64,000 bases of DNA, taken from positions 40,922 through 104,921 of the forward strand of contig JAIELQ010000007.1 in NCBI GenBank assembly GCA_019752815.1, given 5' to 3'. The translations under genes and the position numbers were made by a program. Position 1 is the stretch's first letter; each line of letters opens with the position of its first letter. The stretch is from Patescibacteria group bacterium (GTDB taxonomy: Bacteria; Patescibacteriota; Minisyncoccia; Phycocordibacterales; UBA918). The notes under the pieces were generated by a model that saw only the letters and a program-made list of their open reading frames with translations, had not been told where the DNA came from and made no database searches. Positions 1,752-49,762 of the stretch are shown here, piece by piece.

Positions 1752-3005
1752 ATGCCTAAACTAACAAAGTCCACATCAATATGGGACGTAACCGTCATTG
1801 GTGGCGGTCCGGCGGGAATGATGGCTGCCATTGAAGCCGGAGCACGTGGCAAGCGGGTTCTATTGATTGAGAAAAATGCTGGGTTAGGTAAGAAGCTGTT
1901 GATTACCGGTGGTGGTCGGTGTAATGTCACCAATAATAAACCAGTGGTGCGGGAGATGTTGAGTCAGTATAAAGAGGCCGGTAAATTTTTGTTCTCAACG
2001 TTTATGCAGTACGGAGTCAAAGAGACAATTGATTTTTTTGCACGTTATAATTTACCGTTTATCGAAGAAAATGAAGGACGTTTGTTTCCGAACACACAAA
2101 AAGCTGAATCAGTTTTTAATGTACTACAGCAAGCTTTGCAAGAGCATGCAGTTACGATTCAGACAGGTAAGAAAGTGGCAGTAATTAAAAAAGCAGGCAC
2201 CCAGTTTAGTGTGGAGTTGTCAGATGGTGAACAAGTACTAACTCAGGCTGTGGTGGTAGCAACCGGCGGCACCGCGAGGCCTGAAACTGGATCAACTGGT
2301 GAGGGATTTCAGTGGTTGGCAGAATTGGGTCACACCATACACGCGGGCAGTACCTCACTAGTTCCGATAACGGTTGCAGAAGACTGGGTAGCAGTGCTCG
2401 GTGGTGTCAGTCTGCCTGAGGCAACACTCAGTATCTACTGTAATGGTACTAAACGACATAAAGCCACTGGGAAATTACTGTTCACACATATTGGTTTGTC
2501 TGGTCCCTTGATTTTAAATCAAAGTAAATTGATTGGTGATTTGTTGGTAGAGGGAGATGTGGTAATAAAAATAGATATCACACCAACGATTGATGCCAGT
2601 GTTATCCAGGCGGAATTACTCGCACTGTTTACCGCTACACCAAATAAAAAACTTAAAAATGTGCTGGGTGAAATAATTAAACCAGCACTCGTGACACCGC
2701 TCTTGCAGTCGCTTATGCTCGATGGAGATGTTCCAGTACACAGCATTACTGCAGCCAATCGTAAACGAATTGGAGTCGTGCTTAAGGCACTGCCTCTCTC
2801 TGTTACGGGTTTGCTTGGTCCTGATAAAGCGGTTGCTACCGCCGGTGGTGTAGATTTGACTGAGGTTGATTTTAAAACGATGGAGTCCAAAATTATACCA
2901 GGGTTGTATATCATTGGAGATGTTCTTGATATCAATCGACCATCAGGGGGATATAGTCTCCAATTAACTTGGTCCACCGGTGCTGTTGCTGGTAGACATG
3001 TCTAA
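1752..3005 (+). CDS. HI0933/BaiN-family FAD/NAD(P)-binding flavoprotein (aminoacetone oxidase-like)
   Basis: N-terminal Rossmann motif DVTVIGGGPAGMMAAIEAGARGKRVLLIEKN followed by GGGRCNVTN, which is typical of the HI0933 family. The ATG at 1752 sits 4 nt after the GH3 stop. Confidence 0.8.
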   Translation: MPKLTKSTSIWDVTVIGGGPAGMMAAIEAGARGKRVLLIEKNAGLGKKLLITGGGRCNVTNNKPVVREMLSQYKEAGKFLFSTFMQYGVKETIDFFARYNLPFIEENEGRLFPNTQKAESVFNVLQQALQEHAVTIQTGKKVAVIKKAGTQFSVELSDGEQVLTQAVVVATGGTARPETGSTGEGFQWLAELGHTIHAGSTSLVPITVAEDWVAVLGGVSLPEATLSIYCNGTKRHKATGKLLFTHIGLSGPLILNQSKLIGDLLVEGDVVIKIDITPTIDASVIQAELLALFTATPNKKLKNVLGEIIKPALVTPLLQSLMLDGDVPVHSITAANRKRIGVVLKALPLSVTGLLGPDKAVATAGGVDLTEVDFKTMESKIIPGLYIIGDVLDINRPSGGYSLQLTWSTGAVAGRHV

Positions 3006-3035
3006 AAAATAGAGGTGACATCTAAAACTGGTAAG

Positions 3036-3140
3036 CTTCGTTGTTGTCTTTCAAAAAATAAATTTCAACGTACAATAAGTACGTCTCAAATTATTTTTCT
3101 CAGTCGCCTAGAATCTTACTCAGTTTTAAACGTCAAACTA
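3036..3140 (+). repeat. Family-B intergenic MITE/REP-like element (copy 1), with the cgtac-N-gtacg core hairpin
   Basis: About 75% identical to the elements at 14753-14866, 22709-22820 and 47328-47442. Shares cgttgttg...caacgtacaataagtacgtctc...gtcgcctagaatcttactc. Confidence 0.6.
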
Positions 3141-3151
3141 ACATTCAAACC

Positions 3152-3385
3152 ATGACAGAACAACCAAAAAATCCCCTACACGGAATAACTCTTAAAATGA
3201 TTTTGGAGACTCTCATTTCCGAGTATGGATTTCCAACATTAGGTACTAAAATCAACATCAAATGTTTTCAAGAAAAACCAAGTCTTAATTCGAGTCTAGT
3301 CTTTTTGCGCAAAACACCATGGGCACGGGCGAAGGTAGAAAAGCTTTATTTACAGACAGTTAAACGGAAAAAGACTGGTCAGTAG
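3152..3385 (+). CDS. VF530/DUF2132-family small protein
   Basis: 77 aa. The motifs PLHGITLKMILETL...KINIKCF...PSLNSSLVFLRKTPWARAKVE match the conserved DUF2132 pattern. Confidence 0.6.
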   Translation: MTEQPKNPLHGITLKMILETLISEYGFPTLGTKINIKCFQEKPSLNSSLVFLRKTPWARAKVEKLYLQTVKRKKTGQ

Positions 3386-3433
3386 TGTATTGTTTTCAAT
3401 AATACTACCTATTTCGTTGTATACTATAGACAT

Positions 3434-3700
3434 ATGAAATTAATCATCATTATCCAAACGCTGATTATTATTGCCGGTGCGTATTACGTATATTTACTGA
3501 GCAATCCAAAAGAAGTCATTGTTGAACCTGTGCCTGAAGCGAGTGTGCCGGTGATTGAATCTGATTCTGTTCGTGAAGGCTACACTCCACCAACCGTAAA
3601 CCCGCCCGCTGATCCCGCTACCCTCAATAGTGAAGTGACAGGGCATAGTGACGTAGGAATGGAGTACCCAATTCCTGACGAAGAAATCCAGGTTCGGTAA
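3434..3700 (+). CDS. Small N-terminally membrane-anchored hypothetical protein
   Basis: 88 aa with a hydrophobic N-terminus and a Pro/acidic tail. Followed immediately by a terminator. Confidence 0.4.
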   Translation: MKLIIIIQTLIIIAGAYYVYLLSNPKEVIVEPVPEASVPVIESDSVREGYTPPTVNPPADPATLNSEVTGHSDVGMEYPIPDEEIQVR

Positions 3701-3716
3701 TCATCCAAGTTACAAA

Positions 3717-3755
3717 CTAAAAGCACGAGACATTGTCTCGTGCTTTTAGTTTTTA
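3717..3755 (+). terminator. Rho-independent terminator
   Basis: Perfect inverted repeat aaaagcacgagaca/tgtctcgtgctttt followed by a T-run. Confidence 0.7.
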
Positions 3756-3790
3756 GTAAACGCAATGATTCTTCTAGTAAGAATTGATTA

Positions 3791-3890
3791 AAATAGAGTC
3801 AGTCCTAGGCGCACAAGGAATTTAGGTCGAGGCGTACATCTGTACGATGAGGCATAAATTTCCGCAGTGCAACAACGGAATGAACTATTT
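3791..3890 (-). repeat. Family-B MITE/REP-like element (copy 2, inverted relative to copy 1)
   Basis: The reverse complement reads ttccgttgttgcactgcggaaattt...catcgtacagatgtacgcctc...ccttgtgcgcctaggactgactc, which is collinear with the 14753-14866 copy. Confidence 0.6.
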
Positions 3891-4628
3891 TTATCGATTC
3901 GTGTAGTCTTTTTCTACGTATATAGAAACTGTCCTGCGCTTTCGGGCCTTGCCTTTCAGTACATGTTTATGTGACTTGTAAATTTTATGGACGATAAATT
4001 TTTCTGATAAAAATTCAGTGAGCGCTTCAAGTGAGTAGACGTACTCATCTACACCAATGACGGGGTGGACGTACGAACCAGTTTCCTTGCCGGGGAAGTC
4101 ACGTAATAGTCGGCGGGTATGTAAATCTTCATCTGCCAAAAAAGTCTTCATGAATAAAAATCCACCTGGAACGAGCACGCGATAAATTTCATCACGGAGG
4201 GTCTGTCGTTCCTTTTGATTTAAAAAGTGTGACGTCATCATGTCGAGCACTAATGTTTGTGAGTTGTCAGGTACATCAAGAGGTCCCGCAATACTGCGCG
4301 CGGTGTAATCTATTGCGTAGTCGGCTGAAGCTGCTTTGGCTTGGTCAATCGCAGAAACAGAAATATCATAGCCAATACCCTTCATGCCAAATTCTCGGGC
4401 GAGGAAAATTATGTTACGTCCATTGCCACACCCTACATCGAGGACAGAGGCGGTTTGCGCTAATATATCACCACGTTTTTGACGAATAATGTAGCGAGTG
4501 AATTTCTCCAAGTCTTCACTATGGTCTGACGATAGTTTTAAGTGGCTAGCTTCTTTATACTCCTTATCCCAAAAGGTAGTACCATGTGTCTTCTTTTTCT
4601 GTTTGCGTATAAAGGGTCGTTTTGCCAT
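3891..4628 (-). CDS. Class I SAM-dependent methyltransferase
   Basis: VLDVGCGNGRNIIFLA is SAM-binding motif I; LVPGGFLF is the post-II region. The likely start is MAKRPFIRKQ at 4628. Confidence 0.8.
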   Translation of the reverse strand: MAKRPFIRKQKKKTHGTTFWDKEYKEASHLKLSSDHSEDLEKFTRYIIRQKRGDILAQTASVLDVGCGNGRNIIFLAREFGMKGIGYDISVSAIDQAKAASADYAIDYTARSIAGPLDVPDNSQTLVLDMMTSHFLNQKERQTLRDEIYRVLVPGGFLFMKTFLADEDLHTRRLLRDFPGKETGSYVHPVIGVDEYVYSLEALTEFLSEKFIVHKIYKSHKHVLKGKARKRRTVSIYVEKDYTNR

Positions 4629-4725
4629 CGGGATTTTATGAAATCTTATTACATCATAAAAAGTTGTAACTTGCAAGGTTAATAGCATTAGAATACGCTA
4701 TTTAATTTGCTATACTAGGCGGTAT

Positions 4726-5453: not shown

Positions 5454-6176
5454 ATGGAGCGAGCGCCTCAAGAGTTTGATACTGAAGCGTTTGATGAATA
5501 TATCTACCCACAGTTTTCACGAGCTAAGGTCTCAGTGTTGAGTGACGTGAAGCCCGATAAAAAATGTTTAACAGAAGTGAAGACAGATTTTATCGCGGGG
5601 AAAATTGAAGAACCAGTTTTGACGTACGAAAAAAATAAAGACACTTGGTACGACGAGCCAGAAATTATCCTGTTAGATTTAAAGAACGAACTTATAGTGC
5701 GTGGAGATATTCCTGAATTTATTCGAGAGCAATATATTTGGGCAATTAATGAGAAGATTGCAAAAATCCGTATGCTGCGCGAGACTCAGGCAGTTACAAA
5801 AGGCGGTGATGTGGAATATCACATGAAGCGCTTTCAACGGTATGCTGACTTTATGTACGGTCAACCAGACCCAAAAATTTTTAATGGGGTAATGCAGCGG
5901 ATTGAACATGAGATTACTGTCACCAAAAATCAAGAAAACGAATCTTCGGAAATTGCTGCAGCAAGAAAAAAACTTTTAGAAATTATTGAGAGTTACAAAG
6001 CTGATAATCCGTACCTAGATTCGCTACAAAATATTAATATTGAGGGTCCCAAAACTGACGAGGAAATTGTAACTGATGCGGAAGTCTTAAAAAAATATTC
6101 GAAGAGGCTCTCATTTCGTACGGCTTGGATGATTGGAAAGTGGTTATTGACAAAAGTGGAACGAGGACAGCCATAG
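5454..6176 (+). CDS. DUF1704 / QEGLA-motif family protein, N-terminal portion of a gene split by an apparent frameshift
   Basis: Frame 0 ends shortly after an A7 run at 6089-6095. The -1 frame continues with ...EEALISYGLDDWKVV, which is characteristic of DUF1704. Confidence 0.55.
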   Translation: MERAPQEFDTEAFDEYIYPQFSRAKVSVLSDVKPDKKCLTEVKTDFIAGKIEEPVLTYEKNKDTWYDEPEIILLDLKNELIVRGDIPEFIREQYIWAINEKIAKIRMLRETQAVTKGGDVEYHMKRFQRYADFMYGQPDPKIFNGVMQRIEHEITVTKNQENESSEIAAARKKLLEIIESYKADNPYLDSLQNINIEGPKTDEEIVTDAEVLKKYSKRLSFRTAWMIGKWLLTKVERGQP

Positions 6177-6811
6177 CCGTTTCCGGAGATGGGAAAAAAG
6201 TCTTATTGCCAACATCTGAAAAGCTAGCGCTTCGAAGTAAGAAGCGACAATTGTCAATGTCTATGATCAAAGGTCTTATTGCTCATGAAATTGGTACGCA
6301 TGGACTCCGAAAAAAGAACGGCCAACAGTCCAAAGTACTACTCTTGAGCTCAGGATTAGATAGATATGAACAAGGCGAGGAAGGTCTCGCTACATTTAGG
6401 GAACAAGCTGAAACACCGACAGCAGATTATGCTGGTTTAGAGGCATACTTTGCTATTGGAATAGCAAAAGGCATGGATGGTGGGTCAAAGCGTAATTTTG
6501 CGCAAGTATTTGAAATTTTAACAAATTATTATCTTATCTCAGAGAACACTGATACTGCTCGTGCTAAAGAATTAGCTTGGAGTCGTTGCGAGCGTATTTT
6601 TCGGGGCACAACTGGAACTGTGCCGGGAGTAGTTTTCTCAAAAGACCTCATGTATCGTGAGGGTAATATATCTCACTGGAAAGCAGTAGCTAATGGTGCG
6701 TTAGATGGCCTTGATTTAGATTCTGGAAAATTTGACCCAACTAATCCACGGCATGTTAATTTTCTCAATAATCTTAAGGAATTGAATCAGAAAGTGGATC
6801 AGCTGCAATAA
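6125..6811 (+). CDS. DUF1704 / QEGLA-motif family protein, C-terminal portion (HEIGTH metal-binding motif, EEGLA motif)
   Basis: LIAHEIGTHGLR is an HExxxH motif, and YEQGEEGLATFREQAE matches the TIGR02421-type QEGLA motif. This part continues the upstream ORF in another frame. Confidence 0.55.
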   Translation: MDDWKVVIDKSGTRTAIAVSGDGKKVLLPTSEKLALRSKKRQLSMSMIKGLIAHEIGTHGLRKKNGQQSKVLLLSSGLDRYEQGEEGLATFREQAETPTADYAGLEAYFAIGIAKGMDGGSKRNFAQVFEILTNYYLISENTDTARAKELAWSRCERIFRGTTGTVPGVVFSKDLMYREGNISHWKAVANGALDGLDLDSGKFDPTNPRHVNFLNNLKELNQKVDQLQ

Positions 6812-13815: not shown

Positions 13816-14748
13816 ATGGCGTGGATACTACTGGCGACCCTGGGACAGTTCCTCAATGCTCTGGTGGCGTTTTTGGATAAGTACATAGTTTCTGACGAAG
13901 CGGCCCTGCCGAAGCCGTTTGTGTACGCATTTTATTCGTGCATATTAACCGGCGGTTGGGCAATTATCTATTTCCTCGGTTTTATTCCTGGATTGAGTGA
14001 AATTGGTTTTCCCCATTTTGAAAATGTACAGGCGCCGACTATTCAAGTAGTGGCGATGTCGTTTTTTGCGGCGTATACGTTTTTTATGGCGCTGGTGTCA
14101 ATGTATTCGGCACTGCGTAACGCCGAAGCGGTAAATGTAATGCCAGTAATTGGTGCGGTATCAGCTATTTCATCGTTTGGACTGGTGTATCTATTCCTTG
14201 ATGTAGCATTCTCACCAAATTTTATGTGGGGGGTAGTGGTACTGTCGCTGGGGACGCTTTTGGTAGCACAAACTATTCCAAAAATGGAAGATGTCATCCA
14301 TGTATTTCATAGTGGTATTTTCTTTGCGCTGCACTTTATTACGATGAAGGGGTTGTTCCTTGAGACCAACTTTGATGATGGATTCTTTTGGTCACGTATT
14401 TGTTTTGTATTGTTTGCGCTTTCATTGCTCTTGGTGCCAACCTATTATAAAAAAATTCGGGAACAAACGGGAGCTACTACTAAAAAAACTGGAGTTCTCG
14501 TTATTGCTACTAAAATCTTAGCTGGGGTAGCAGCGTTTATGTTACTCAAAGCGACCGATATGGGAGATGTGGCAGTTGTGCAGGCACTTGATGGCGTAAA
14601 GTTTGTGTTTATTCTTTTGATTACAATCATTTTTGCTTCGCTATTGCCTGACACGGTGGCCGTCCACGAACCAAAACCACGTGAGGTGATGCGACGGGTA
14701 TTGTATGTGATGGTGATTGCAGTAGGATATTTCATTCTCTTCACCTGA
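13816..14748 (+). CDS. Polytopic membrane protein, possibly a DMT/EamA-like transporter
   Basis: About 10 predicted TM segments. Starts 8 nt after the GH1 stop, so it is likely cotranscribed. Confidence 0.4.
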   Translation: MAWILLATLGQFLNALVAFLDKYIVSDEAALPKPFVYAFYSCILTGGWAIIYFLGFIPGLSEIGFPHFENVQAPTIQVVAMSFFAAYTFFMALVSMYSALRNAEAVNVMPVIGAVSAISSFGLVYLFLDVAFSPNFMWGVVVLSLGTLLVAQTIPKMEDVIHVFHSGIFFALHFITMKGLFLETNFDDGFFWSRICFVLFALSLLLVPTYYKKIREQTGATTKKTGVLVIATKILAGVAAFMLLKATDMGDVAVVQALDGVKFVFILLITIIFASLLPDTVAVHEPKPREVMRRVLYVMVIAVGYFILFT

Positions 14749-14752
14749 TAAG

Positions 14753-14866
14753 GCCTGAAAACGGCGTATTTCGTTGTTGCACTGCGTAAAATTTTGTTCA
14801 CCGTACGAAAAGTACGGCTCACGAAAATTTTACTTGTGCGCCTAGAACTACACTCGTTTTAAGGAC
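14753..14866 (+). repeat. Family-B MITE/REP-like element (copy 3)
   Basis: ctgaaaacggcg...cgttgttgcactgcgtaaaatttt...ccgtacgaaaagtacgg...aaaattttacttgtgcgcctagaactacactcgttttaagg. Both the terminal and the internal inverted repeats are present. Confidence 0.65.
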
Positions 14867-14927
14867 TTATCCAAAATTTAAAAAATACTATAAACCAGCC
14901 TGATATAATAATTATTAATAAAGATAT

Positions 14928-17705: not shown

Positions 17706-17721
17706 TAGTCATAGTGCCTTG

Positions 17722-17747
17722 AAAATAGCCCTTCACGGGCTTTTTTT
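17722..17747 (+). terminator. Rho-independent terminator
   Basis: agccc-ttca-cgggct followed by ttttttt. Confidence 0.65.
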
Positions 17748-17782
17748 CATGCGGTCCTAAAAATGCTATACTGAGGGTACAT

Positions 17783-19457: not shown

Positions 19458-19468
19458 ACTAAACAATT

Positions 19469-22641: not shown

Positions 22642-22681
22642 AAACAAAACACCGCAAACGAAGTTTGCGGTGTTTTGTTTT
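22642..22681. terminator. Bidirectional terminator hairpin, downstream of rnj on the - strand
   Basis: aaacaaaacaccgcaaac-gaag-tttgcggtgttttgttt, with A/T runs on both sides. Confidence 0.65.
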
Positions 22682-22708
22682 CTTTAACTTTAAAAAGTGA
22701 TCGATGGA

Positions 22709-22820
22709 CTTTCAGAAATGAGTGCAGTGCTAGGAGTGCAAGAAAATTTTATGGAGACGTACTGCTTGTACGGCGGAATAAAATTTTCGCAGCAACGACA
22801 ACGCAATGTGCCGTTTCTGG
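22709..22820 (-). repeat. Family-B MITE/REP-like element (copy 4, inverted)
   Basis: Nearly identical to the reverse complement of the 47328-47442 copy: ttcagaaatgagtgcagtgctaggagtgcaag...gacgtactgcttgtacggcgg...cgcagcaacgacaacgcaatgtgccgtttctgg. Confidence 0.7.
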
Positions 22821-22829
22821 AAGTTCACG

Positions 22830-24881
22830 TTAGATACCAATCAAAACCGGAATAACCATCGGTGATTTTTGAGTTCGTTGCATCAAGAAACTCTGGACGG
22901 TCTCAGTCAATTCATCTTTAACGTAATCCAAATCAATCGGATTCATCCGTTCAGTGTGCTTTTCGATAGTCTTTTTAATCAAGACTCGCGCTTCAGACAA
23001 TAGTTGTTGGTTTTCACGGAGGTAGACGAAACCACGAGAGATAATGTCTGGTGATTTGCGGAGTTTACCGGTTTTGCCGTTTACGGTCGCGATAATCACA
23101 AACATACCGTCTTCGGCGAGGGACATACGGTCACGCAACACTACTTCTTGACGCGTACCAACGGTGAATCCATCAACCAGTACTTGCTCGTTAGGAATCT
23201 TTACCTTGTGACGAATGAGCTCAGTACCGTTCTTAATATCAATAATGGTTCCATTGTCAGGGACCACGATATTTTCGCGGGGGAAGCCATTTTCAGCGGC
23301 TACAAACATGTGTGTCTTTAAGTGGTAGTGGTGTCCGTGTACCGGAATAAGGAAACGTGGCTTAACCGCTTTGTTTACCCAAATCAATTCACCCGAGTTA
23401 CCGTGACCAGAGGCGTGCACGTGTGAACCTTGGAAGTTCATCACCCGTACGTTTTGACGGTAAATATTGTCTTTTAGTTTCTGCACGGCGATTTCGTTAC
23501 CGGGAATAACTGATGAAGACAATACAATGGTGTCACGTTCAGTCAGCACAATTTGTTTATGTTTACCGGTCGCCATTCGCATAAGGGCGGCAAACTCTTC
23601 ACCCTGGGCACCGGTTGAGAGTACGACAATTTTATCAGCCGGGTAATTAGGAATGTCGTTTGCTGAAATAAAGGTATCTGGTTTTACTTCAATCAATTTT
23701 GCGGTAATGGCGATATCAATATTAGTTTTGATACTGCGCCCTTCCATGACCACTTTTTTGCCCATGGTTTCACAACTTTGAATCACTGATACCAATCGGT
23801 CAAACTGTGACGCGAACGTACCAATAATCAATCGTCCACGAGTAGTGCGAATGATTTCATCCAGGGTCTTGTATACCTTGGCCTCAGCGACTGAATAGCC
23901 GGCGCGGTCGGCGTTGGTGGAGTCACACAACAGAGCAATGTTGTTGTGGGTACCAACTTCTTCCCAGACTTCTTTTTCTTCGATAACGATATTGTTATTG
24001 TCGTCAGTGACAACCTTGATGTCGCCCGTAATAACAATGTCACCGTGTTTGGTTTCAACAGCGAGACCCATCGCATCAGGAATCGAGTGCGTAACCGGGA
24101 AGGTGCGAATGCGCAATTTACCCACGGTAAAGGCCTCGCCTTCTTTGACGATATGCATGTCAATTGGTGCAATGTGTGGAAATTCTTCCTGACGTTTGAG
24201 GATCATCAGTGACGTGAGATACTGTGTGTACATTGGTGGGTTACCAATACGCTCGTAGAGGAAGGGAATACCACCGATGTGGTCGAGGTGACCATGGGTA
24301 ATAACCATCGCGCGAATTTTGTCTTTTCGTTCCTCAAGATACTGTGTGTTTGGGAGAATGTATTGAATTCCAGGGGCGTTACTTTCTTCAGATACGAACC
24401 CAAAGCCGGCATCAATCACGATGATGTCGTCTTTAGTCTCAATAATGTTCATGTTGCGTCCAATTTCTTCTACACCGGATACGGTAATGATGCGGACAGT
24501 GTCTTCGTCAGTAATTTCAGGAAGAATCGGATTCTTTTCGTCTGTGACCGTCATACGGTGAGTCAGCGCCGGACTGGTCATTGGACGGCGGTTGTTGCCA
24601 CCACTACGTCGTTTGTTATTGCGGCCTGACTTTTTAGCGCCAGCTGTGCCCGTATGGTTACTGCGTCCACCACTGTGTGGTCGGGAGCCAGTATGTGCTC
24701 CAGCCGGGCGCGGGTGAGTAGCTGTTGCTGGTTGTGCACCGGTCGCACCGGTAGCGACTGCTGGCCGCGGGCCACGATTTTGAGACCGGTTGAAATAGCG
24801 GCGGGCGGGGCGGGCTCCTCCCGTAGTACCTGGGGTACTTGGGCGTGGGGTTGGGTTGTTGTTTGATTGTTCGTTGTTCAT
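22830..24881 (-). CDS. rnj: Ribonuclease J (metallo-beta-lactamase/beta-CASP) with a ~130-aa R/G/P-rich low-complexity N-terminal extension
   Basis: ITHGHLDHIGG is the HxHxDH motif; beta-CASP motifs; C-terminal domain. The N-terminus (NNEQSNNNPTPRPSTPGTTGGARPARR...) is low-complexity and basic. Confidence 0.9.
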   Translation of the reverse strand: MNNEQSNNNPTPRPSTPGTTGGARPARRYFNRSQNRGPRPAVATGATGAQPATATHPRPAGAHTGSRPHSGGRSNHTGTAGAKKSGRNNKRRSGGNNRRPMTSPALTHRMTVTDEKNPILPEITDEDTVRIITVSGVEEIGRNMNIIETKDDIIVIDAGFGFVSEESNAPGIQYILPNTQYLEERKDKIRAMVITHGHLDHIGGIPFLYERIGNPPMYTQYLTSLMILKRQEEFPHIAPIDMHIVKEGEAFTVGKLRIRTFPVTHSIPDAMGLAVETKHGDIVITGDIKVVTDDNNNIVIEEKEVWEEVGTHNNIALLCDSTNADRAGYSVAEAKVYKTLDEIIRTTRGRLIIGTFASQFDRLVSVIQSCETMGKKVVMEGRSIKTNIDIAITAKLIEVKPDTFISANDIPNYPADKIVVLSTGAQGEEFAALMRMATGKHKQIVLTERDTIVLSSSVIPGNEIAVQKLKDNIYRQNVRVMNFQGSHVHASGHGNSGELIWVNKAVKPRFLIPVHGHHYHLKTHMFVAAENGFPRENIVVPDNGTIIDIKNGTELIRHKVKIPNEQVLVDGFTVGTRQEVVLRDRMSLAEDGMFVIIATVNGKTGKLRKSPDIISRGFVYLRENQQLLSEARVLIKKTIEKHTERMNPIDLDYVKDELTETVQSFLMQRTQKSPMVIPVLIGI

Positions 24882-37541: not shown

Positions 37542-38522
37542 ATGCCCAAAAAGGTTTTGGAAAAAAAGAATATACCAAGTAACGTTGTGGTCTACCAGAC
37601 AAAGTCGGGTGCTTTGGAGTTGCGTGGGGATTTTAAGCATGAGATGGTTTGGGCTACGCAAGCACAGATTGCAGATGTTTTTGAAATTGATCGTACAGTT
37701 GCAACAAAGCACATTAACAACACACTTAGGTCGAGTGAAGTTGATGAAAATAACAATGTGCAAAAAATGCACATTGCTAACTCAAAAAAACCAATCAGTT
37801 TGTACTCGTTGGATATTATTTTAGCTGTTGGGTACCGTACAAACTCAGCAAAAGCGATTGAATTTCGCCAATGGGCTACTAAAACACTCAGACAACACAT
37901 TGTGTCTGGCTACACTATCAATCGGGCTCGAATAGCTAAAAACTATGATGAATTCATGGCTACAGTGGCGAAACTGCAAGCAGTTCTGCCTAATAATGCT
38001 GAAATCGATTCTAAAACCACACTTGATTTGGTTAGATTGTTTGCGGATACGTGGTTCTCACTTGATGCGTATGATAAGGAGTCATTAGCACCTTCAAAAG
38101 TTAATAAAAAGAAATTAAAACTAACGGCCAAAGAGTTGCAAGATGGTATTGTGGTTCTCAAAACTGAGTTAATGAGAAAAGGCGAAGCAACCAATAACTT
38201 TGCTCAAGAGCGCAATCATGAGGCGTTGGAAGGAATAGTTGGTAACGTGATGCAAAGTTTTGGTGGAAACGAGCTGTATCCTAGTATTCAGTCAAAAGCA
38301 GCTCACTTACTCTACTTTATAATCAAAAATCACCCGTTTGTTGATGGTAACAAACGTTCCGGTGCGTATGCGTTTGTATGGTTCTTGCAGAAAACAAAAG
38401 TGCTTAACACTAACACTCTTACCCCAACCGCCCTTACTGCTCTCACTATTCTTATTGCAGAAAGTAATCCTGTTGATAAAGAGAAAATCATAGCCTTGGT
38501 CACTACTTTGATTTCAGGATAA
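37542..38522 (+). CDS. RhuM-family protein with a C-terminal Fic/Doc domain (Doc-type HPFxDGNKR motif)
   Basis: N-terminal KSGALELRGDFKHEMVWATQAQIADVFEIDRTVATKHI matches the Virulence_RhuM pattern. C-terminal NHPFVDGNKRSGAYAF is the Doc/Fic active-site motif. Confidence 0.75.
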   Translation: MPKKVLEKKNIPSNVVVYQTKSGALELRGDFKHEMVWATQAQIADVFEIDRTVATKHINNTLRSSEVDENNNVQKMHIANSKKPISLYSLDIILAVGYRTNSAKAIEFRQWATKTLRQHIVSGYTINRARIAKNYDEFMATVAKLQAVLPNNAEIDSKTTLDLVRLFADTWFSLDAYDKESLAPSKVNKKKLKLTAKELQDGIVVLKTELMRKGEATNNFAQERNHEALEGIVGNVMQSFGGNELYPSIQSKAAHLLYFIIKNHPFVDGNKRSGAYAFVWFLQKTKVLNTNTLTPTALTALTILIAESNPVDKEKIIALVTTLISG

Positions 38523-39847: not shown

Positions 39848-39853
39848 TTGAGT

Positions 39854-40294
39854 ATGGCACAAACAAGTATTACGACAATTTATAAAAGTGACACCAGTAA
39901 CACGGGAGCGACCCTCACTCCTTTGTATACCTCTGCGCCAGCAGCGGGCTTTCCGGCACCGGGGGATGATATGGTAGAAAAGTCACTGAATGTTCATGAG
40001 TATCTGGTAAAACATCCGGTATCGACGTTTTTTGTCCGGGTGGAAGGAGATTCGATGGAAGGGGCGGGGATTTTCTCGGGTGATATTTTAGTGGTTGATA
40101 GAAGTGTGGAGGCAAAAGCCGGTCGCATCGTGGTAGCTGCCGTTGGCGGTGGGTTGGTGGTTAAACGCCTCGCCCTGCTCGCGGGGAATATGGTTCTCAT
40201 GTCTGAAAATGAAGCCTATGCACCAATAACAGTGACAGGGGATGAGGAGTGTTTTGTGTGGGGTGTAGTAACCGGCAGCGTCCGCCACTTCTAG
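39854..40294 (+). CDS. umuD: UmuD-like S24 self-cleaving peptidase (LexA C-terminal-domain homologue without an HTH)
   Basis: PAAG|FPAP is an Ala-Gly cleavage-site motif. VRVEGDSMEGAGI carries the Ser nucleophile and LVVKRL the Lys. The protein is 147 aa with no DNA-binding domain. Confidence 0.7.
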   Translation: MAQTSITTIYKSDTSNTGATLTPLYTSAPAAGFPAPGDDMVEKSLNVHEYLVKHPVSTFFVRVEGDSMEGAGIFSGDILVVDRSVEAKAGRIVVAAVGGGLVVKRLALLAGNMVLMSENEAYAPITVTGDEECFVWGVVTGSVRHF

Positions 40295-40477
40295 GAGAAT
40301 CCGAAAAACTACCTCATCTACTGCGTTGCCTGCGTCGGAAAATTTCTCACCGTATATTGAATACGGCTCGCAATTTTTCTCCTTGTCGCCTTGTATCTAA
40401 GGCAGTTTATCGAATTCTCTAATCCAATCACTCTGTTTTTGAAGTTTTCCACCTCCTTACGGATTCTAATTAAAAAA

Positions 40478-40506
40478 ACAGGCGCCCAAGTTATTGGACG
40501 CCTTTT
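40478..40506 (-). terminator. Weak terminator hairpin downstream of the small minus-strand gene
   Basis: aggcg-N14-cgcct followed by a T-run on the minus strand. Confidence 0.35.
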
Positions 40507-40509
40507 CGT

Positions 40510-40704
40510 TTATTCGCCGTCGCCGGTCGCCGGTCGACCAAAATCTTTTGTGTCAATCTGGTCTGGATTGTACGTAATGACTGCATCTGCAGTATTTGCA
40601 ACTGGAGCTGGGTTGAAGATTGGGTCATACGGCTTTGTGGCCGGCTGACGTTCATAAGCGGGCATATTGTGTTCGAGAACACGGTCTACCGGGTCACGGG
40701 CCAT
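40510..40704 (-). CDS. Small hypothetical protein (64 aa) with a strong RBS
   Basis: AGGAGG lies 7 nt upstream of the ATG (MARDPVDRVLEHNMPAYERQ...). It sits inside the 625-bp spacer between the umuD-like gene and the GH18 gene. Confidence 0.4.
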   Translation of the reverse strand: MARDPVDRVLEHNMPAYERQPATKPYDPIFNPAPVANTADAVITYNPDQIDTKDFGRPATGDGE

Positions 40705-40920
40705 GGTGTTTCCTCCTTCTGACTGTCCCACGATTGTAACTACATCAGTCAATAAAAAGTAACCGCCCGACACATGAGACGGTAGAGGGGTGGTCCCTAT
40801 AGTCAAGGATTTATTTTTTGGTGATTGGCGATATTTCCCGTATGATGAGTAGAGTAATCATGACAGAGTATCCGCAGATTATATAGGTAAGAAAAGGCCG
40901 TTTAAGTCGTCTTAAAAATT

Positions 40921-42162
40921 ATGACAACCACTACAATAATCTATCCAAAAACGCTTATTAATTCATGTGTTACGAGCATCATTCTGGCGAGTCTGTTATT
41001 GTCAGCCTACCCAGCTTCTGCTGCGACCAGTAGATCATCGTCAAATGATGATTTTAAGGGTGAAGTGGCGGGTTGGATTCCGTGGTGGCAAGATACCGCG
41101 GGTCTCAAAAGCGCTACTAAAAACATTAAAAAAATTGATACCGTCTACCCGTTTGCCTTTGAAGTGGATGCTTACGGAAATATTACGGACAAAGCTGGCT
41201 TAAACGAAAAACAATGGCGTGATTTTATCAAGCTAGCCAAGAAAAATAAGGTTGAAATCATTCCGTCCGTGGCTTGGTTTGATGGTGATCAAATTGGCGC
41301 GATGTTGAGTGACCGCAACCGTCGCGAGGTGCATATAAATCAAATCGTAAATATCGTTAAAAAAGGGAAGTATGATGGCATTAATATCGACTACGAGGGA
41401 AAGAACGCTGAAAATATTAATGATTTCTCGAGATTCCTCGAAGAATTAAATAAAGCGCTCGGTAGTAAACTCCTCACCTGTGCGATTGAAGCCCGAACTC
41501 CAGCTGTAGATCTATACAAGGTAGTGCCTAATCCCCTCACGTACGCCAACGACTACAAAGAAATCGCGAAACATTGTGACCGGATTGAACTGATGACGTA
41601 CGACCAGCAACGGGCGGACCTGACCCTAAACGCCAAACGAGCCGGTTTGCCGTATACACCAGTAGCTGACAAAGAATGGGTAGAGAAGGTAATTAAGCTA
41701 GCCTTGGAAGATTTTCCTGAAGATAAAGTAATGGTCGGAGTAGCCACCTACGGACGCGCCTGGGACGTTACCGTGGCTCCTGGATGGTATCGTGACTATG
41801 TGCGTGTTGCTACCCTAAACGAACCACGTATTCTTGAGTTATCAAAAGAAATCTACAAAACACCAATTGGGTACAGTACGGGTGGCGAAGCGGTGATGAG
41901 TTACTTCCCTGAAGATTCACCATACAAAGTTCTCACCGCCCTCCCAGTCCCTAACGGAACGCCAAAGGGATATGAAAATGCCGCCCGCGCTCTGTTGTTT
42001 GCTGATTTAGCCAAGACCGAGGTAAAAGTACGATTTATTACGTACAACGATGCCGTTTCAGCCAAAGACAAGTTGGAACTGATTGAGAAATATGATTTGC
42101 GCGGTGTAGCCTTCTTCAAAATTGATGGTGAAGAAGATCCAGATATTTGGAAGTTGTTTTAA
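40921..42162 (+). CDS. GH18-family glycoside hydrolase (SleL/YdhD-chitinase-like), secreted
   Basis: Signal peptide; [11 protein letters not shown] is a DGxNxDxE variant of the GH18 catalytic motif. Overall GH18 TIM-barrel pattern. Confidence 0.7.
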
Positions 42163-42181
42163 GAAGTTAATCAACATATCA

Positions 42182-42217
42182 AAAAAGCCTTAAGGATTTA
42201 ATCCTTAAGGCTTTTTG
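42182..42217 (+). terminator. Rho-independent terminator
   Basis: aaaaaagccttaaggattt-aatccttaaggcttttt, a perfect 14-bp stem. Confidence 0.7.
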
Positions 42218-42258
42218 TCACCATTGGATATACTCAATGCTATAATTGAAATATTATT

Positions 42259-42984
42259 ATGACACATGAGGATATTTCCACGGAGGCATATGAATGGGTT
42301 AAGGATAATCCAGCAGTCCTGATTGAGGCTATTGCTGGTAGGTATAAAGATTTAGAAGAGGGTCGTGTAGCAGTTTTTATGGCTGGTGCACCAGGCGCTG
42401 GAAAGACCGAATTTTCACGATGTCTTATTCGAGACACGTTCGGTCCAGACACAACACTAATCGTAAGAATTGACCCGGATGAAATTAGGATGCTAATCCC
42501 TACATATATAAAAGGTAAAGCAGAGTTGTTTAATCGAGCAACTACAAAAGGGGTTGAGATACTAGTTGATCATTGCTATGACAGAAATTTAGATAAAAGT
42601 TTCTTGTTGGATGGCACATTAAGTAACTGTGAAGTTGCAAGAAGAAATATCGAAAGAGCTTTAGATCGGGGTAGAAAAGTACTAATCTATTTTGTGTATA
42701 AAGATCCGGTAGTTGCGTGGGATTTTACTCAAAAGAGAGAGAAAATCGAAGGACGTAATATTCCTAAAGAGAGTTTTATTAATCAGTATTTCGGTTCAAT
42801 TGAGACTATTAATCAATTAAAAAAAGAATATGGAAACAGAATACAAATCGATTTAGTGCAGCTTGCTGTGCCAAATTTACAAAAGCCTCTTATTACTGAC
42901 TATAAATTTGAGTTCAATATTAGCAGTGTTGACGGGTATTTAAATACAAGGTATTCTAAAGATACATTAAGTGAACTGCTATGA
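42259..42984 (+). CDS. Zeta-toxin family P-loop kinase (PezT/zeta-like)
   Basis: VFMAGAPGAGKTEF is the Walker A motif. IVRIDPDEIRMLIPTY matches the zeta/PezT GGQSGAGKT...IDGDSFRSQHPHY pattern. Confidence 0.65.
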   Translation: MTHEDISTEAYEWVKDNPAVLIEAIAGRYKDLEEGRVAVFMAGAPGAGKTEFSRCLIRDTFGPDTTLIVRIDPDEIRMLIPTYIKGKAELFNRATTKGVEILVDHCYDRNLDKSFLLDGTLSNCEVARRNIERALDRGRKVLIYFVYKDPVVAWDFTQKREKIEGRNIPKESFINQYFGSIETINQLKKEYGNRIQIDLVQLAVPNLQKPLITDYKFEFNISSVDGYLNTRYSKDTLSELL

Positions 42985-43175
42985 AGTATATCCTTAAATT
43001 TCTTGGAAGAGAGGGAAAAAAACGTTCGGGTATTAAAAGCCCCGTCTACGTCTTTTTTGCAGAAGCGGACGCAACTGTAAAAACAAAAGCCTATAGAAAA
43101 GCACTTCGAAGTGCTTCAGAAGATCAAATGTCTATTTTATCAAAGTATGATAAAGAGTTTGCACAGATGAATTAA
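42981..43175 (+). CDS. Small basic hypothetical protein, translationally coupled (ATGA) to the zeta-like gene
   Basis: 64 aa. The start overlaps the upstream stop, and a terminator follows. Confidence 0.35.
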   Translation: MKYILKFLGREGKKRSGIKSPVYVFFAEADATVKTKAYRKALRSASEDQMSILSKYDKEFAQMN

Positions 43176-43198
43176 AAATCCCTTGAAAGGGATTTTTT
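43174..43198 (+). terminator. Rho-independent terminator
   Basis: aaaaatccc-ttgaaa-gggattttt. Confidence 0.7.
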
Positions 43199-43261
43199 AC
43201 TACGATGCCTTTTGTGGCCGAATAGGGATGACTGCACAATTGTGTATTGTATACTGATTCT

Positions 43262-44515
43262 ATGAACTACATTGGGGTGATTGATTGTAATAATTTTTTT
43301 GTGTCGTGTGAGCGGCTATTTCGGCCGGATTTGGTGGGGAAACCGGTGGTCGTTTTGTCATCAAATGATGGGTGTGTGGTAGCGCGCTCGCAAGAAGTAA
43401 AGGACATGGGGGTCCCGATGGGGGTACCTATCTTTCAGATAAAAGACATGATAAAGGACAAAGGAATTATAACGTTTTCTTCACACTTTGCGCTGTATCG
43501 CGATATTTCCAGTCGGGTTTTTACCGTGGTTAAAACACTTCTGCCCACGCGCGAGATATACTCAATTGATGAAGCGTTCTTTACTATAAGCGCACATTCT
43601 AAAGCGGAGTTAGAGGCGACGTTACGCGCCATGAAAATTGAGATTGAACGGCAGGTGGGTATCCCGGTATCCTTGGCGGTGGCGGCTACCAAAACTCAGG
43701 CTAAATATGCCAATCGGCTGGCGAAGAAATCAGGTGGTGTGACTGTCCTTGATCCGGCAGATTGGGAGGCGCTTACGCCCATGATACCGCTACAGAATAT
43801 TTGGGGAGTGGGCGGGAAGTTGGAGATGCGGTATAAAAACGCCGGACTAGTAACCGTAGCTGATTTGATTGCGTGTCCCAAATCGCGGATTGCCAGTATG
43901 TTTGGGATTGTGGGGGTGCGGCTGCAAGCTGAACTCGCCGGTATGCCGATGTATGCCGTATCGGAAGTGCATGCGCCGCAAAAAAGTATTATGAGTTCTC
44001 GGTCATTTGAAAAGAATGTGACCGAGATAGCGGTGGTAAAAGATGCGGTAGCGTACCACCTGCGCCAAGTGGTAGCCGAGCTACGTCATTTACGTCTCAA
44101 AACCAAGAATCTATCAATATTTTTAGGTACCAGTCGCCACGGTGATTATCTGCTACGTGGCGGTTCACTCGGGGTCGAAAACATGACGCCAACGGATGAC
44201 ATAGTTTTTTTACTGAAGCAGGCGTTTGCCCTGGTTGACAGGCTGTATGATGCGGAAGTGCCGTACAAAAAGGCCGGGGTCTACATCAGTGGTTTTAGTC
44301 CCAAAACGGTCATCCAGCAGTCGTTATTTACTGATACTGACGAAGTAACCTATAGCCCGATCAATGACCTTCTTGATGGTTTTAATGCGCGCTACGGGGC
44401 TGATATGGTAACGATCGGCACGCATACCAAAGAACGGAAATGGCAATCAAAATCAGAACAAAAATCTCCGGCCTATACGACGCGCTGGAGTGATCTCGCG
44501 GTGGTAAAGACATAA
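43262..44515 (+). CDS. umuC: Y-family DNA polymerase (UmuC/DinB-like translesion polymerase)
   Basis: GVIDCNNFFVSCERL matches the Y-family motif I (DxxxFFxxxE). SNDGCVVARS; GIGPV-like HhH region; little-finger domain. Confidence 0.8.
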   Translation: MNYIGVIDCNNFFVSCERLFRPDLVGKPVVVLSSNDGCVVARSQEVKDMGVPMGVPIFQIKDMIKDKGIITFSSHFALYRDISSRVFTVVKTLLPTREIYSIDEAFFTISAHSKAELEATLRAMKIEIERQVGIPVSLAVAATKTQAKYANRLAKKSGGVTVLDPADWEALTPMIPLQNIWGVGGKLEMRYKNAGLVTVADLIACPKSRIASMFGIVGVRLQAELAGMPMYAVSEVHAPQKSIMSSRSFEKNVTEIAVVKDAVAYHLRQVVAELRHLRLKTKNLSIFLGTSRHGDYLLRGGSLGVENMTPTDDIVFLLKQAFALVDRLYDAEVPYKKAGVYISGFSPKTVIQQSLFTDTDEVTYSPINDLLDGFNARYGADMVTIGTHTKERKWQSKSEQKSPAYTTRWSDLAVVKT

Positions 44516-44831: not shown

Positions 44832-45965
44832 ATGTTCAAACATTCAACTATTACTGTTGAATCTTTGCACCGAGTGGTCGCGATGCTCGTTGCAACAGCT
44901 GTATTGGCTATGTCGGTTGGGTTCTTCAATAATGCCCAAGCTGCTAACCTTGCAGTGATCAGCAACACTTTATCAGACTCAGATCGAAGTGCGCTCTCGA
45001 ATCATACGATTCAGTTCACGATTCCTACCAGTTCACCTGGTGTACTTGCTACACAAACAATCGTTGTGACATTCCCTACTGGATTCAACATGGGATCAGT
45101 TGCGTTCGGAGACATTGACTTCGCAATTAACGGCGTTGAACAAACTCTTGCAGCAACACAATCAGGTGCTACTTGGGGAGCTACCGTGTCAGGTCAAAAC
45201 CTCACACTTACCTCAGGTACTGGAGTTGTAACTGCTGGACAAGTAGTTCGGATTCGAGTTGGAACAAATGCGGTAACGGGAGGAACTGGTACAAACCGAG
45301 TCACCAATCCTGGTACAACAGACTCATATGAGTTTATAGTTACCGCGGGGGCTGCTGACTCAGGTCGCACTAGAGTCGCAATTCTCGATAACGTAGATGT
45401 TACTGCAATTGTAAATACATCATTCACATTTACTGTTGCCGGACTCGCTACATCAACTGCTGTAAACGGAACTTCAACTACAGGTTCAACTACAGCGACA
45501 GCTATTCCATTCGGAGTACTTACTGCCGGACAAATTAAAACAATGGCACAACGACTTAATGTCACTACAAACGCCCGAAACGGATTCGTAGTAACCGTTG
45601 AGCAAGATCAAAACTTGCAATCATCAACTGGTGCCGACATTGATGGATTTATTGACGGAGCCTACACAAATACTCCAACTTCATGGGTAGCTCCAACTAA
45701 CAACATTGGAAATGAAAACACCTGGGGTCACTGGGGTCTCACGTCTGATGACTCAGACCTAAACTCCAACGAGTTCGGTACAGCACTCTTCGTAGCTGCA
45801 AGTACCACACCACGCCAGATTTTCGCTCACAACGGACCGGCCGATGGTATCGCCAACGATATCGGTTCAACAACTGTAGGGTATCAAATCCAAATCAGTC
45901 CACTCCAGGAAGCGGGAGATGACTACAATACTGTACTTACCTACATCGCAACCCCTACATTTTAG
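44832..45965 (+). CDS. Secreted Thr/Gly-rich surface protein; N-terminal domain paralogous to the dockerin protein at 50042; possible WxL-like C-terminus
   Basis: Signal peptide; ISNTLSDSDRSALSNHTIQFTIP aligns with ISNSGPEQPSNHTLSFTLT of the 50042 protein. The C-terminus carries WGHWGLT and LTYIATP. Confidence 0.45.
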   Translation: MFKHSTITVESLHRVVAMLVATAVLAMSVGFFNNAQAANLAVISNTLSDSDRSALSNHTIQFTIPTSSPGVLATQTIVVTFPTGFNMGSVAFGDIDFAINGVEQTLAATQSGATWGATVSGQNLTLTSGTGVVTAGQVVRIRVGTNAVTGGTGTNRVTNPGTTDSYEFIVTAGAADSGRTRVAILDNVDVTAIVNTSFTFTVAGLATSTAVNGTSTTGSTTATAIPFGVLTAGQIKTMAQRLNVTTNARNGFVVTVEQDQNLQSSTGADIDGFIDGAYTNTPTSWVAPTNNIGNENTWGHWGLTSDDSDLNSNEFGTALFVAASTTPRQIFAHNGPADGIANDIGSTTVGYQIQISPLQEAGDDYNTVLTYIATPTF

Positions 45966-46120
45966 TTCCAAAATTCATTCATTAGCTTCGTTGCCCTCAG
46001 CATTTTAAATCCTCATCGTACAAGAAGTACGACTCGGATCTAAAAGCTTCAGTGCCTCGCTTCTAAATAAATTTGTGAAACTAAAATACTATTCTTAAAA
46101 CGTATCATTAGAGTAGTTGG

Positions 46121-46174
46121 CACGCACAAAACAACAAAACCTCCTCTATGGAGGTTTTGTTGTTTTGTGCGTGA
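46121..46174. terminator. Very long (25-bp stem) perfect hairpin, probable bidirectional terminator
   Basis: gcacgcacaaaacaacaaaacctcc-tcta-ggaggttttgttgttttgtgcgtg. Confidence 0.6.
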
Positions 46175-46256
46175 GGTGATGTTTCTGTTTATAAAATTAC
46201 GAAGGCCGATGATTTTAAATGCTATGATAGATTCATTAATCTTTAAGTTTGTTTGC

Positions 46257-47315
46257 ATGATTCGCACCCTTTTTACTGCTCTGTTGTTTGCTTTTGTTTT
46301 GTTGCCGTCCCTTTCATTTGCGCAAAGTGATGCTGGGATTGGTCTTAAGCCAGCGAACATTGCTGAAAATATGGAGCCGGGTGAAGTGCGTCAATTTACG
46401 GTGCTTGTAGAAAACGTCAGTGGTCAGGATCAAAATTATTATATCTTCAAGCGAGATATTTCTGGAGTGCGAGACGGAGGGGTGCCAATTTTTGCTGATA
46501 ATAATTTGGATACCGGTGGATTTGCGTTAAGTGATTGGATACAACTTGAATCAGACAGACTCGAAGTAAAAGCTGGTGAGGAACGTGCCATGTCATTTAT
46601 TATGTCAGTGCCGCAAGATGCATCACCGTGTGATCACTTTGGCGGGATTTTTGTCTCGGCTGAACCCCCAGAATTAGAAGCGAGTGGTGCTGCTATCGGC
46701 TACCAAGTTGCCAACATTGTTAGTATTAGAGTAGCGGGTGAGTGTATTGAAAAAGCCCAGATTAGACAATTCTCAACCGACAATTATTTCTACGGTTCTT
46801 CAAATGTAGATTTTAATCTTAAGTTTGAAAATAGTGGTAACACACTCTTGCGACCAACTGGTCCCCTGACCATCACCAACATGTTTGGAAAACAGGTTGC
46901 CAATTTGACCTTTAACGAAGAGCAGGCAGGAGTATTTCCAGGTGTGACACGTGAGTTCTTGTTTAGTTGGACGAGTGACCAAACCGGCTTTGGACGGTAT
47001 GAAGCGATGGTGAGCCCGAGTTATGGAGAGGAAGGTTTCAAGCAAACCGCCTTTAGTACCGCAACGTTCTGGATCCTGCCGATGAATATTATTCTGCCGG
47101 CCGCAGGAGTGTTAGCCGCACTGCTTTTGATTGCCTATATCAGTATTCGTGTGTATGTGAAGCGACAGCTGGCGTACTACGGAGCAACCTCAGGAACTCG
47201 AAAACTAGTTCGTCGACACACCAACAATAGTTCAACACCGCTCTTGTTAATTCTAGTAGTGATGGTGTCGGTGACGGCTTTGTTCCTGCTCATCCTCCTA
47301 GCCCTATTCGCCTAG
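46257..47315 (+). CDS. DUF916/DUF3324-like (CscA-like) cell-surface protein with a C-terminal TM anchor
   Basis: Signal peptide MIRTLFTALLFAFVLLPSLSFAQS; two beta-sandwich-like domains (GIGLKPANIAENMEPGEVRQFTVLVENVSGQDQNYYIF...); C-terminal TM segment followed by a basic stretch. Confidence 0.45.
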   Translation: MIRTLFTALLFAFVLLPSLSFAQSDAGIGLKPANIAENMEPGEVRQFTVLVENVSGQDQNYYIFKRDISGVRDGGVPIFADNNLDTGGFALSDWIQLESDRLEVKAGEERAMSFIMSVPQDASPCDHFGGIFVSAEPPELEASGAAIGYQVANIVSIRVAGECIEKAQIRQFSTDNYFYGSSNVDFNLKFENSGNTLLRPTGPLTITNMFGKQVANLTFNEEQAGVFPGVTREFLFSWTSDQTGFGRYEAMVSPSYGEEGFKQTAFSTATFWILPMNIILPAAGVLAALLLIAYISIRVYVKRQLAYYGATSGTRKLVRRHTNNSSTPLLLILVVMVSVTALFLLILLALFA

Positions 47316-47327
47316 ACCTCCAGAAAT

Positions 47328-47442
47328 GGCACATTGCGTTGTCGCTGCCGCGGTACTTTTTCTTCCGCCGTACAGCGGTACGTCTACAGGAAAAGTCCTT
47401 GCGACTCCTAGCACTGCACTCATTTCTGAAGGTCTAGTTTGG
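47328..47442 (+). repeat. Family-B MITE/REP-like element (copy 5) with terminal inverted repeats cagaaatg/catttctg
   Basis: ccagaaatggcacattgcgttgtcgctgc...ccgtacagcggtacg...cttgcgactcctagcactgcactcatttctgaagg. Confidence 0.7.
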
Positions 47443-49756: not shown

Positions 49757-49762
49757 GCTACA

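Follow-up and report, generated by a model that had tools for sequence, protein, structure and literature searches.

A hairpin-forming ~120-nt repeat behind stop codons in Patescibacteria and other bacterial phyla

The 64,000-nucleotide stretch of Patescibacteria DNA analyzed here (the window) carries seven full-length copies of a non-coding repeat, each of which folds as a single long imperfect hairpin of ~120 nt with a defined polarity and begins 0–10 nt from the stop codon of a co-oriented gene. The family to which these copies belong spans at least six phylum-level groups. The reading towards which we lean is that of a selfish, non-autonomous palindromic mobile element of 3' UTRs, similar in kind to REPIN and ERIC sequences, to which the term MITE applies only loosely.

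Five of the copies (c1–c5) had been named in a sequence-only reading of the window, and all five are present at essentially the same positions (Table 1). A covariance model built from these five copies (R1) turned up two additional full-length copies, c6 and c7, both of which look decayed under this model. The short stretch at 46003-46027 that had been taken for a core fragment is present, but it forms the apex of the full-length, diverged copy c6, while c7 had been missed, so that an earlier count of five or more becomes seven in 64 kb. A second covariance model (R2), built from 103 copies of other genomes among the matches listed, scores the seven window copies at 60.7–112 bits (E values of 6e-16 to 2e-32) and their reverse strands at no more than 15 bits, indicating strong polarity, and an R2 scan of the window found no scoring sequence besides these seven.

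In the alignment of the five named copies the mean column identity is 65% and the blocks CGTTGT, GTACG and CCTAG are invariant. Three features of the hairpin are conserved: the GTTGT/CCTA internal loop, in which GCGTTGTYGC of the 5' arm faces GCGCCTAGC to form a 5x4 loop, an apical CGTAC-N4/5-GTACG stem, and a CU bulge. Across phyla, conservation is highest in the internal unpaired motifs and lowest at the termini. The complementarity of the ends, previously interpreted as terminal inverted repeats (TIRs), is real; however, the ends form the base of one continuous imperfect hairpin of ~55 bp and are not separate elements. Single-sequence folds are far more stable than those of shuffled sequences (z scores down to -6.8), with the antisense strand folding better than the sense strand (c3, Table 1). 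The compensatory changes proposed earlier are borne out, with 19 of the 37 predicted pairs remaining paired through two-sided changes in the five-copy alignment. For 101 distinct sequences of other genomes, among the matches listed, 85.7% of the cells are pairing, 35 of the 37 pairs show double changes, and the covariation score is 0.600 versus 0.143 for shuffles and 0.07–0.12 for slid partners. Wobble pairs are rare and without a sense-strand bias (71 G.U and 174 A.C), which is not decisive for the strand; their rarity, and the excess of A.C over G.U on the sense strand, favor a constraint on folded DNA rather than on sense RNA. An apparent hypervariable middle stem was rejected as a feature of the family, since the Treponema copies simply comprise two stem subfamilies plus one recombinant, a chimera joined at the apex.

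Table 1. Repeat copies, their host genes and associated features of the window. R1 and R2, scores under the two covariance models; host-gene family names are from a Pfam search of the window ORFs.
Feature	Position	Strand	Remarks
c1 host, HI0933-like oxidoreductase	1752-3005	+	c1 10 nt past stop, 15 nt before VF530 start
c1	3016-3137	+	R2 112.4 bits; fold z -4.3
VF530/DUF2132 gene	3152-3385	+	PF09905, E 7.8e-31; resident, not cargo
88-aa protein gene	3434-3700	+	ORF with N-terminal hydrophobic segment; resident
Bidirectional intrinsic-terminator hairpin	3711-3755		22-nt arms, 95% complementary; flanking A and T runs
c2	3779-3900	-	R2 97.3 bits
c2 host, methyltransferase	3891-4688	-	its TAA inside c2 5' arm
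c3 host, no assigned protein	13816-14748	+	c3 directly past stop
c3	14749-14871	+	R2 108.4 bits; fold z -4.7 sense strand, -6.8 antisense strand
Terminator hairpin	22642-22680		18 pairs, then T run; 24 nt past c4 3' end
c4	22704-22826	-	R2 105.1 bits
c4 host, RNase J	22830-24881	-	c4 3 nt past stop
c7 host, LexA-like S24 peptidase	39848-40294	+	c7 2 nt past stop
c7	40297-40419	+	R1 28.4 bits, R2 60.7 bits
c6 host	44832-45965	+	TAG stop paired in stem base
c6	45963-46084 (45962-46085 under R1)	+	R2 71 bits; diverged
Terminator-like perfect 24-bp hairpin	46121-46173		36 nt beyond c6
c5 host	46167-47315	+	TAG stop forms first hairpin pairs (TAGACC...GGTCTA)
c5	47314-47437	+	R2 82.5 bits
Long form, second, rearranged	49757-49930	+	after ABC-transporter gene ending 49756; direct repeat D2 with 52008-52054
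Long form	51956-52195	+	multi-hairpin core and short-form-like 3' arm (CCTCGAATAGCACTCGTTTTAGAAAC); right behind stop of gene 50042-51955

The copies are intergenic, as had been noted, except that the first bases of the 5' arm often include the upstream stop codon, the arm in such cases providing the stop itself; the basal stem of c2, c5 and c6 contains the stop codon. The host genes are unrelated in function. The models find 167 copies in the listed 8-kb loci together with the window, and among these the adjoining stop codon is that of a sense-strand gene in 85 and of an antisense-strand gene in 18. Copies in tandem-gene contexts, drawn from the same 167, are oriented sense rather than antisense in a ratio of 55 to 18 (p 1.7e-5), about a quarter thus being inverted, and the preference appears to be reversed in a few deltaproteobacterial cases. 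Among the matches listed, 62 of 86 stop codons are predicted to form part of the paired stem base, and TAG is enriched in the adjacent stops (34/81 versus 175/676, p 0.0036).

Separate intrinsic terminators follow beyond c2, c4 and c6 (Table 1). The hairpin beyond c2, which lies outside the repeat, is common to the small-protein gene (+) and the methyltransferase gene (-), and in a related genome (L102) the repeat is placed after the stop codon and ahead of an intrinsic terminator that has been retained, whereas the corresponding window site has the terminator only. The possibility that the repeat is itself an intrinsic terminator was rejected because of these separate terminators; the c1 junction, which measures only 18–19 nt in relatives, and the copies within ribosomal-protein and rRNA operons argue further against it. 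Since the terminator lies beyond the repeat, the repeat would be transcribed with the preceding gene, and judged from this arrangement it appears to be a transcribed 3'-UTR insert between a stop codon and a separate terminator.

The locus containing c1 and c2 had been singled out because the two inverted copies bracket the VF530 gene and a gene for a small membrane protein. If c1 and c2 were the inverted ends of a composite transposon or mobile cassette that mobilizes the two genes, relatives without c1 should not retain both genes in place, and they do, so that the synteny refutes this explanation. A homology search with the oxidoreductase returned a 100% identical entry on a 190-kb NCBI Patescibacteria contig and relatives whose proteins are 82, 77 and 75% identical. 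The gene order GH3, HI0933-like oxidoreductase, VF530, small protein, methyltransferase(-), DsbA, MATCAP is conserved in all of these relatives, with the VF530 gene in the same position in L119, L121, L122, L123 and L124 (L numbers designate loci outside the window) and an ORF of 88–105 aa at the position equivalent to that of the 88-aa protein, for which a Pfam search gave no match. In two relatives lacking c1 (L119 and L123) a spacer of only 18–19 nt separates the oxidoreductase and VF530 genes, both small genes still being there, from which it follows that c1 was inserted in the lineage of the window; by this comparison it would be a lineage-specific insertion into an operon junction. The c2 site, on the other hand, is filled in every relative compared, and c2 is an old copy bound to the methyltransferase stop codon. 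The arrangement that suggested a cassette, two small genes enclosed by inverted copies 650 bp apart, has parallels in L050 and L061, where inverted copies likewise enclose a gene, but there the enclosed genes encode a transketolase and a lipoprotein and belong to co-linear housekeeping strings, and c1 and c2 are only 62% identical. With c1 tied to the oxidoreductase stop and c2 to the methyltransferase stop, the pair obeys the same rule as all seven copies, and it encloses VF530 only by coincidence: two convergent genes have each received an insertion behind them, one recently and the other long ago. The MATCAP-family gene of this locus is split in the window into overlapping ORFs (5454-6176 and 6125-6811), while relatives have a single 440-aa ORF (L123:7680-9002); the split may reflect a frameshift or a sequencing error.

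Gain and loss are also seen elsewhere. The copy at L072:4332 corresponds to an 11-nt spacer in the window (19458-19468) and that at L102:1742 to a 77-nt spacer (17706-17782), in each case a filled versus an empty site, and in Clostridia ribosomal-protein genes that are 12 nt apart in L033 are separated by copies in L059 and L073. Presence and absence at orthologous sites, as is asked of a MITE, is therefore found at c1 and at these three sites. The earlier view of a multi-copy, hairpin-forming and MITE-like family is in this respect confirmed, close relatives differing in the presence of copies. Other sites are retained: all six of the window sites that lie in stretches syntenic with bin016 are also filled there (proteins 75–83% identical), the c4 ortholog in L072 is 96.7% identical as compared to 82.5% for the RNase J gene itself, the c6 ortholog (L021:2155-2276) is 72.9% identical, and the c7 site is filled in L021 and L055 by copies of ~60% identity.

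At the c2 site the repeat has been repeatedly remodeled. Orthologous copies are present in L121, L122, L123 and L124. The L123 copy is short like that of the window, the arms of the two being nearly identical and their cores covaried. In bin016 (L122) the core is a different one that resembles c1 and is accompanied by a solo 3'-arm remnant. L119 and L120 have a long form here (349 nt in L119), with arms 100%/96.6% identical to those of c2 and an unrelated core, the junctions in L119 falling exactly after CGTTGT and before CCTAG, and L121 has other arms and another core than the conspecific L119, with which it shares an identical oxidoreductase. The methyltransferase C-terminus and stop codon vary with the repeat (EKDYTNR-stop versus EKDYRTDGQK-stop). 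Exchange between copies at the conserved motifs (gene conversion) explains these core swaps. Presence and absence, replacement and recombination between close relatives together indicate that the family is or was mobile. Head-to-tail groups of two or three copies in the same orientation, with no gene in between, also occur (L021:7296-7545, L028:177-585, L062:5416-5658, L083:217-465 and L007:2870-3158).

The long form is found in the window as well (Table 1), the copy at 51956-52195 being 88% identical over 122 nt to that of L122 (L122:5276-5514); others lie at L119:5908-6256 and L102:4703-4981. It measures 240–350 nt, has the basal arms of the short form, or at least the 3' arm, and is likewise placed directly behind stop codons, while a multi-hairpin core (…ACAGAGYGTAGCGAC…CTCAATGAGTCTTGCGAAGTGAC…) replaces the CGTAC apex. 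A permissive scan of the long form against Rfam gave chance-level matches only. The seven short and two long-form copies in 64 kb make up roughly 1–2% of a streamlined genome. The ABC-transporter gene that precedes the rearranged long form (47959-49756) is split into overlapping ORFs (47959-49509 and 49439-49756), which may be due to a frameshift, and its TGA stop lies within the first bases of the element.

Two other parts of the window were noted in passing. The host gene of c7 belongs to a stretch (39848-44515) that encodes the LexA-like S24 peptidase and a chitinase-like GH18 protein followed by a zeta-toxin kinase and a UmuC-like Y-family polymerase, and a Fic/RhuM protein gene (37542-38522) lies just upstream of the peptidase gene. 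Near the window end an ORF of more than 3,171 codons (54483-63998, +) runs off the end, has an internal 60-nt repeat (59034 and 63459) and shows only Laminin_G_3 and Ig-like domains.

The similarity is not confined to this contig, the earlier alternative of an assembly duplication notwithstanding. An exact pattern with 23 specified bases, searched in one genome per GTDB species, matches three times in the window (0 expected) and at more than 118 other loci among the matches listed. The carriers are Patescibacteria of several classes, Clostridia, Negativicutes and Treponema, including the complete T. vincentii genome, as well as Geobacter, Myxococcales and other Deltaproteobacteria, Nitrospira and Gemmatimonadota; one gammaproteobacterial copy has 71% GC, at the upper end of a range of 26–71%. 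In Sporomusa (five species; L012, L014, L022, L041, L089, L110 and L115) every sampled rRNA operon has one copy, located ~30 nt upstream of the 23S rRNA gene and antisense to the rRNA transcript, where it follows 5S or tRNA genes in an unusual 16S-tRNA-5S-23S arrangement. A likeness between the 3' arm and the reverse complement of the 23S 5' end extends over ~12–14 nt only and was judged to be chance. The exact 23-base pattern had 0 matches in 2.9 million viral contigs, giving no sign of a phage vehicle. Rfam 15 at gathering thresholds gave 0 matches in the window, permissive Rfam scans of c3 and of a Sporomusa copy gave chance-level matches only, and a tRNA/tmRNA scan found none. We found no description of the repeat family in the literature searched, which is no proof that the family is undescribed.

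An enzyme that might mobilize the repeat was sought in several ways. Pfam searches of the ~48 window ORFs identified no transposase, a search for one with matching TIRs having been proposed earlier, and no integrase or reverse transcriptase, and clustering of 792 flanking ORFs revealed no recurrent protein family beside the copies. A parent IS was not found, the half-site search being too noisy, nor were any "empty" basal hairpins (GTTGT followed directly by CCTAG) that could serve as targets of a mobile core. TA is present at both ends of c3, c5, c6, c7 and the L102 copy and not of c1, c2 and c4, and could equally belong to the palindrome; no clear target-site duplication was found, and the spacers of filled and empty sites are too diverged to align. 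L124 differs from L123, to which it is otherwise identical, by an IS200-type insertion (L124:650-1750) that comprises a Y1 transposase gene and two small ORFs and has CCxCGTCAGCTTGCTGCGxGG hairpins on either side. Its transposase gene (L124:1256-1699), the sole PF01797 (Y1) gene seen, was rejected as a partner, since the CCCCGTCAGCTTGCTGCGGGG-type hairpins that flank it are unrelated to the ~120-nt repeat.

The hairpin, the multiple copies, gain and loss, replacement, decay, tandem duplicates and arm remnants together suggest a mobile palindrome that is non-autonomous and akin to REPINs and ERIC. The MITE label suits a hairpin family with presence and absence, but the model of TIRs derived from a parent IS is unproven, as the best-conserved parts are internal and are shared by many phyla. 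Several properties do not fit a simple selfish MITE, namely the low identity among window copies (54–82%, low for a recently active MITE), orthologous retention, strong polarity and conservation of unpaired motifs across phyla. The identity range, the sites shared with bin016, the conservation of c4 above that of its host gene and the conservation of internal motifs look more like a host-selected functional element. Such a 3'-UTR cis element would be a structured RNA or DNA cruciform that is bound by a widely conserved protein and kept by selection, its mobility being incidental; it might serve as a 3'-exonuclease barrier, as a site of RNase III cleavage or other processing, or as a termination or recycling signal. 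We regard this explanation as possible but rather unlikely. It would account for unpaired motifs conserved from Patescibacteria to Proteobacteria in copies of such different GC content, for retention at orthologous sites, for the fixed position relative to the stop codon and the biased orientation, for a structure kept despite sequence divergence, and for transcription upstream of terminators, but it is harder to reconcile with host genes that are functionally unrelated and with the many orthologous genes that do without the repeat. Also at odds with it are the inversion of about a quarter of the tandem-context copies and the antisense orientation in Sporomusa rRNA operons, sense-strand G.U pairs rarer than A.C, and the existence of decayed copies (c6 and c7 under R1), tandem duplicates and solo-arm remnants.

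The core swaps at the c2 site, exact at CGTTGT and CCTAG between arms of 97–100% identity, raise the further idea of an attC-like folded single-strand recombination site, at which a structure-specific recombinase would cut at the internal loop and swap apical modules or gene-plus-site units. The location at the 3' ends of ORFs, the unpaired central loop between conserved pairs and the better folding of the antisense strand are in keeping with it. However, the swaps could equally well have arisen by gene conversion, with the conserved motifs as anchors between copies, the genes concerned are housekeeping genes kept in synteny on both strands instead of cassette arrays, no integrase was found in the window and no empty target hairpins were found, and we judge this idea improbable. 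Identity with attC itself was rejected: the paired R''/R' boxes (RYYYAAC/GTTRRRY) are absent, GTTGT facing CCTA unpaired in the internal loop of GCGTTGTYGC and GCGCCTAGC, and in place of a co-oriented array beside intI there are syntenic housekeeping genes.

Under the mobile-palindrome reading that we favor, the repeat would spread in the form of a folded single strand and be recognized, through its conserved unpaired motifs (the GTTGT/CCTA loop, the CU bulge and the CGTAC apex), by an enzyme whose gene lies elsewhere. Insertions would survive only directly after a stop codon: a repeat starting with G or A and inserted at the TA of a stop codon would restore TAG or TAA, leaving the protein and the next promoter intact, and in the mRNA the hairpin would probably act as a 3' barrier or processing site. 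We suggest, with considerable doubt, that the unpaired motifs are the recognition and strand-exchange site of an undescribed structure-specific enzyme, or else the binding site of a near-universal host protein. If this were true the repeat would belong to a class of hairpin mobile elements or 3'-UTR signals that is new and extends across phyla, and would not be one more lineage-specific MITE, and the exact core swaps would be footprints of a structure-specific reaction.

Palindromic repeats such as REP, ERIC and Correia sequences are usually confined to a genus or family. Here the ultra-small Patescibacteria share motifs and architecture with Clostridia of the gut, with Treponema of the mouth and gut, with the rRNA operons of Sporomusa and with Myxococcales of high GC content, and such wide conservation suggests that the carriers have a partner protein or a mechanism in common, which phylogenetic profiling could reveal. 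In annotation, many of the "empty" spacers of 120–400 nt in CPR genomes are explained by this family, as are the variable C-termini and stop codons of adjoining genes, and a covariance model is now available for a family absent from Rfam.

Among known systems, the multi-copy structured intergenic repeats TD-1 and TD-2 of Treponema (Rfam) are similar in type, and the TD-2 apex is also GTAC...GTAC, but c3 does not match the TD models at a permissive threshold and the families differ. In T. vincentii a TD-2 element (L042:4802-4900) directly adjoins a copy of the repeat (L042:4910-5032); the two may be distantly related or have common insertion sites. Integron attC sites are imperfect hairpins of 57–141 nt at ORF 3' ends, with an unpaired central spacer and structure conserved above sequence, all of which the repeat resembles, but it lacks the R/L box consensus, an integrase and a cassette array, and occurs in both orientations among syntenic flanking genes. 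Correia/NEMIS, RUP and other MITEs are likewise short, non-coding and hairpin-forming, vary in presence between strains and in some cases supply stop codons, and about half of the copies inspected have the TA-flanked ends of MITEs; the differences are that we found neither a parent IS nor a proven target-site duplication, that the termini of the repeat are its least conserved part, and that intragenomic identity is only 54–82%.

REPINs are hairpin-forming, non-coding, intergenic multi-copy sequences of ~100 nt that persist for long at their sites and are mobilized in trans by RAYT transposases. The repeat matches them in scale, folding, intergenic location, copy number and longevity at its sites, but it is a single continuous 120-nt hairpin and not an inverted doublet of two REP palindromes of 20–40 nt, it has GTTGT, CCTAG and CGTAC as conserved motifs in place of a GTAG or CGTC head, and among the loci examined no RAYT is flanked by it, the sole Y1 gene (L124) having unrelated flanking hairpins; moreover REP families are not known to be conserved across phyla, whereas this repeat is. 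ERIC (IRU) sequences are long imperfect palindromes of 127 bp in transcribed intergenic or 3' regions, present in both orientations and unusually conserved between genera, for which we know of no transposase and which, to our knowledge, are confined to Enterobacteria and Vibrios. The repeat, whose sequence we take to be unrelated to that of ERIC, is similar in size, in its long imperfect palindrome, in its transcribed 3' or intergenic location, in occurring in both orientations and in its broad conservation, which differs from that of ERIC in extending to at least six phylum-level groups.
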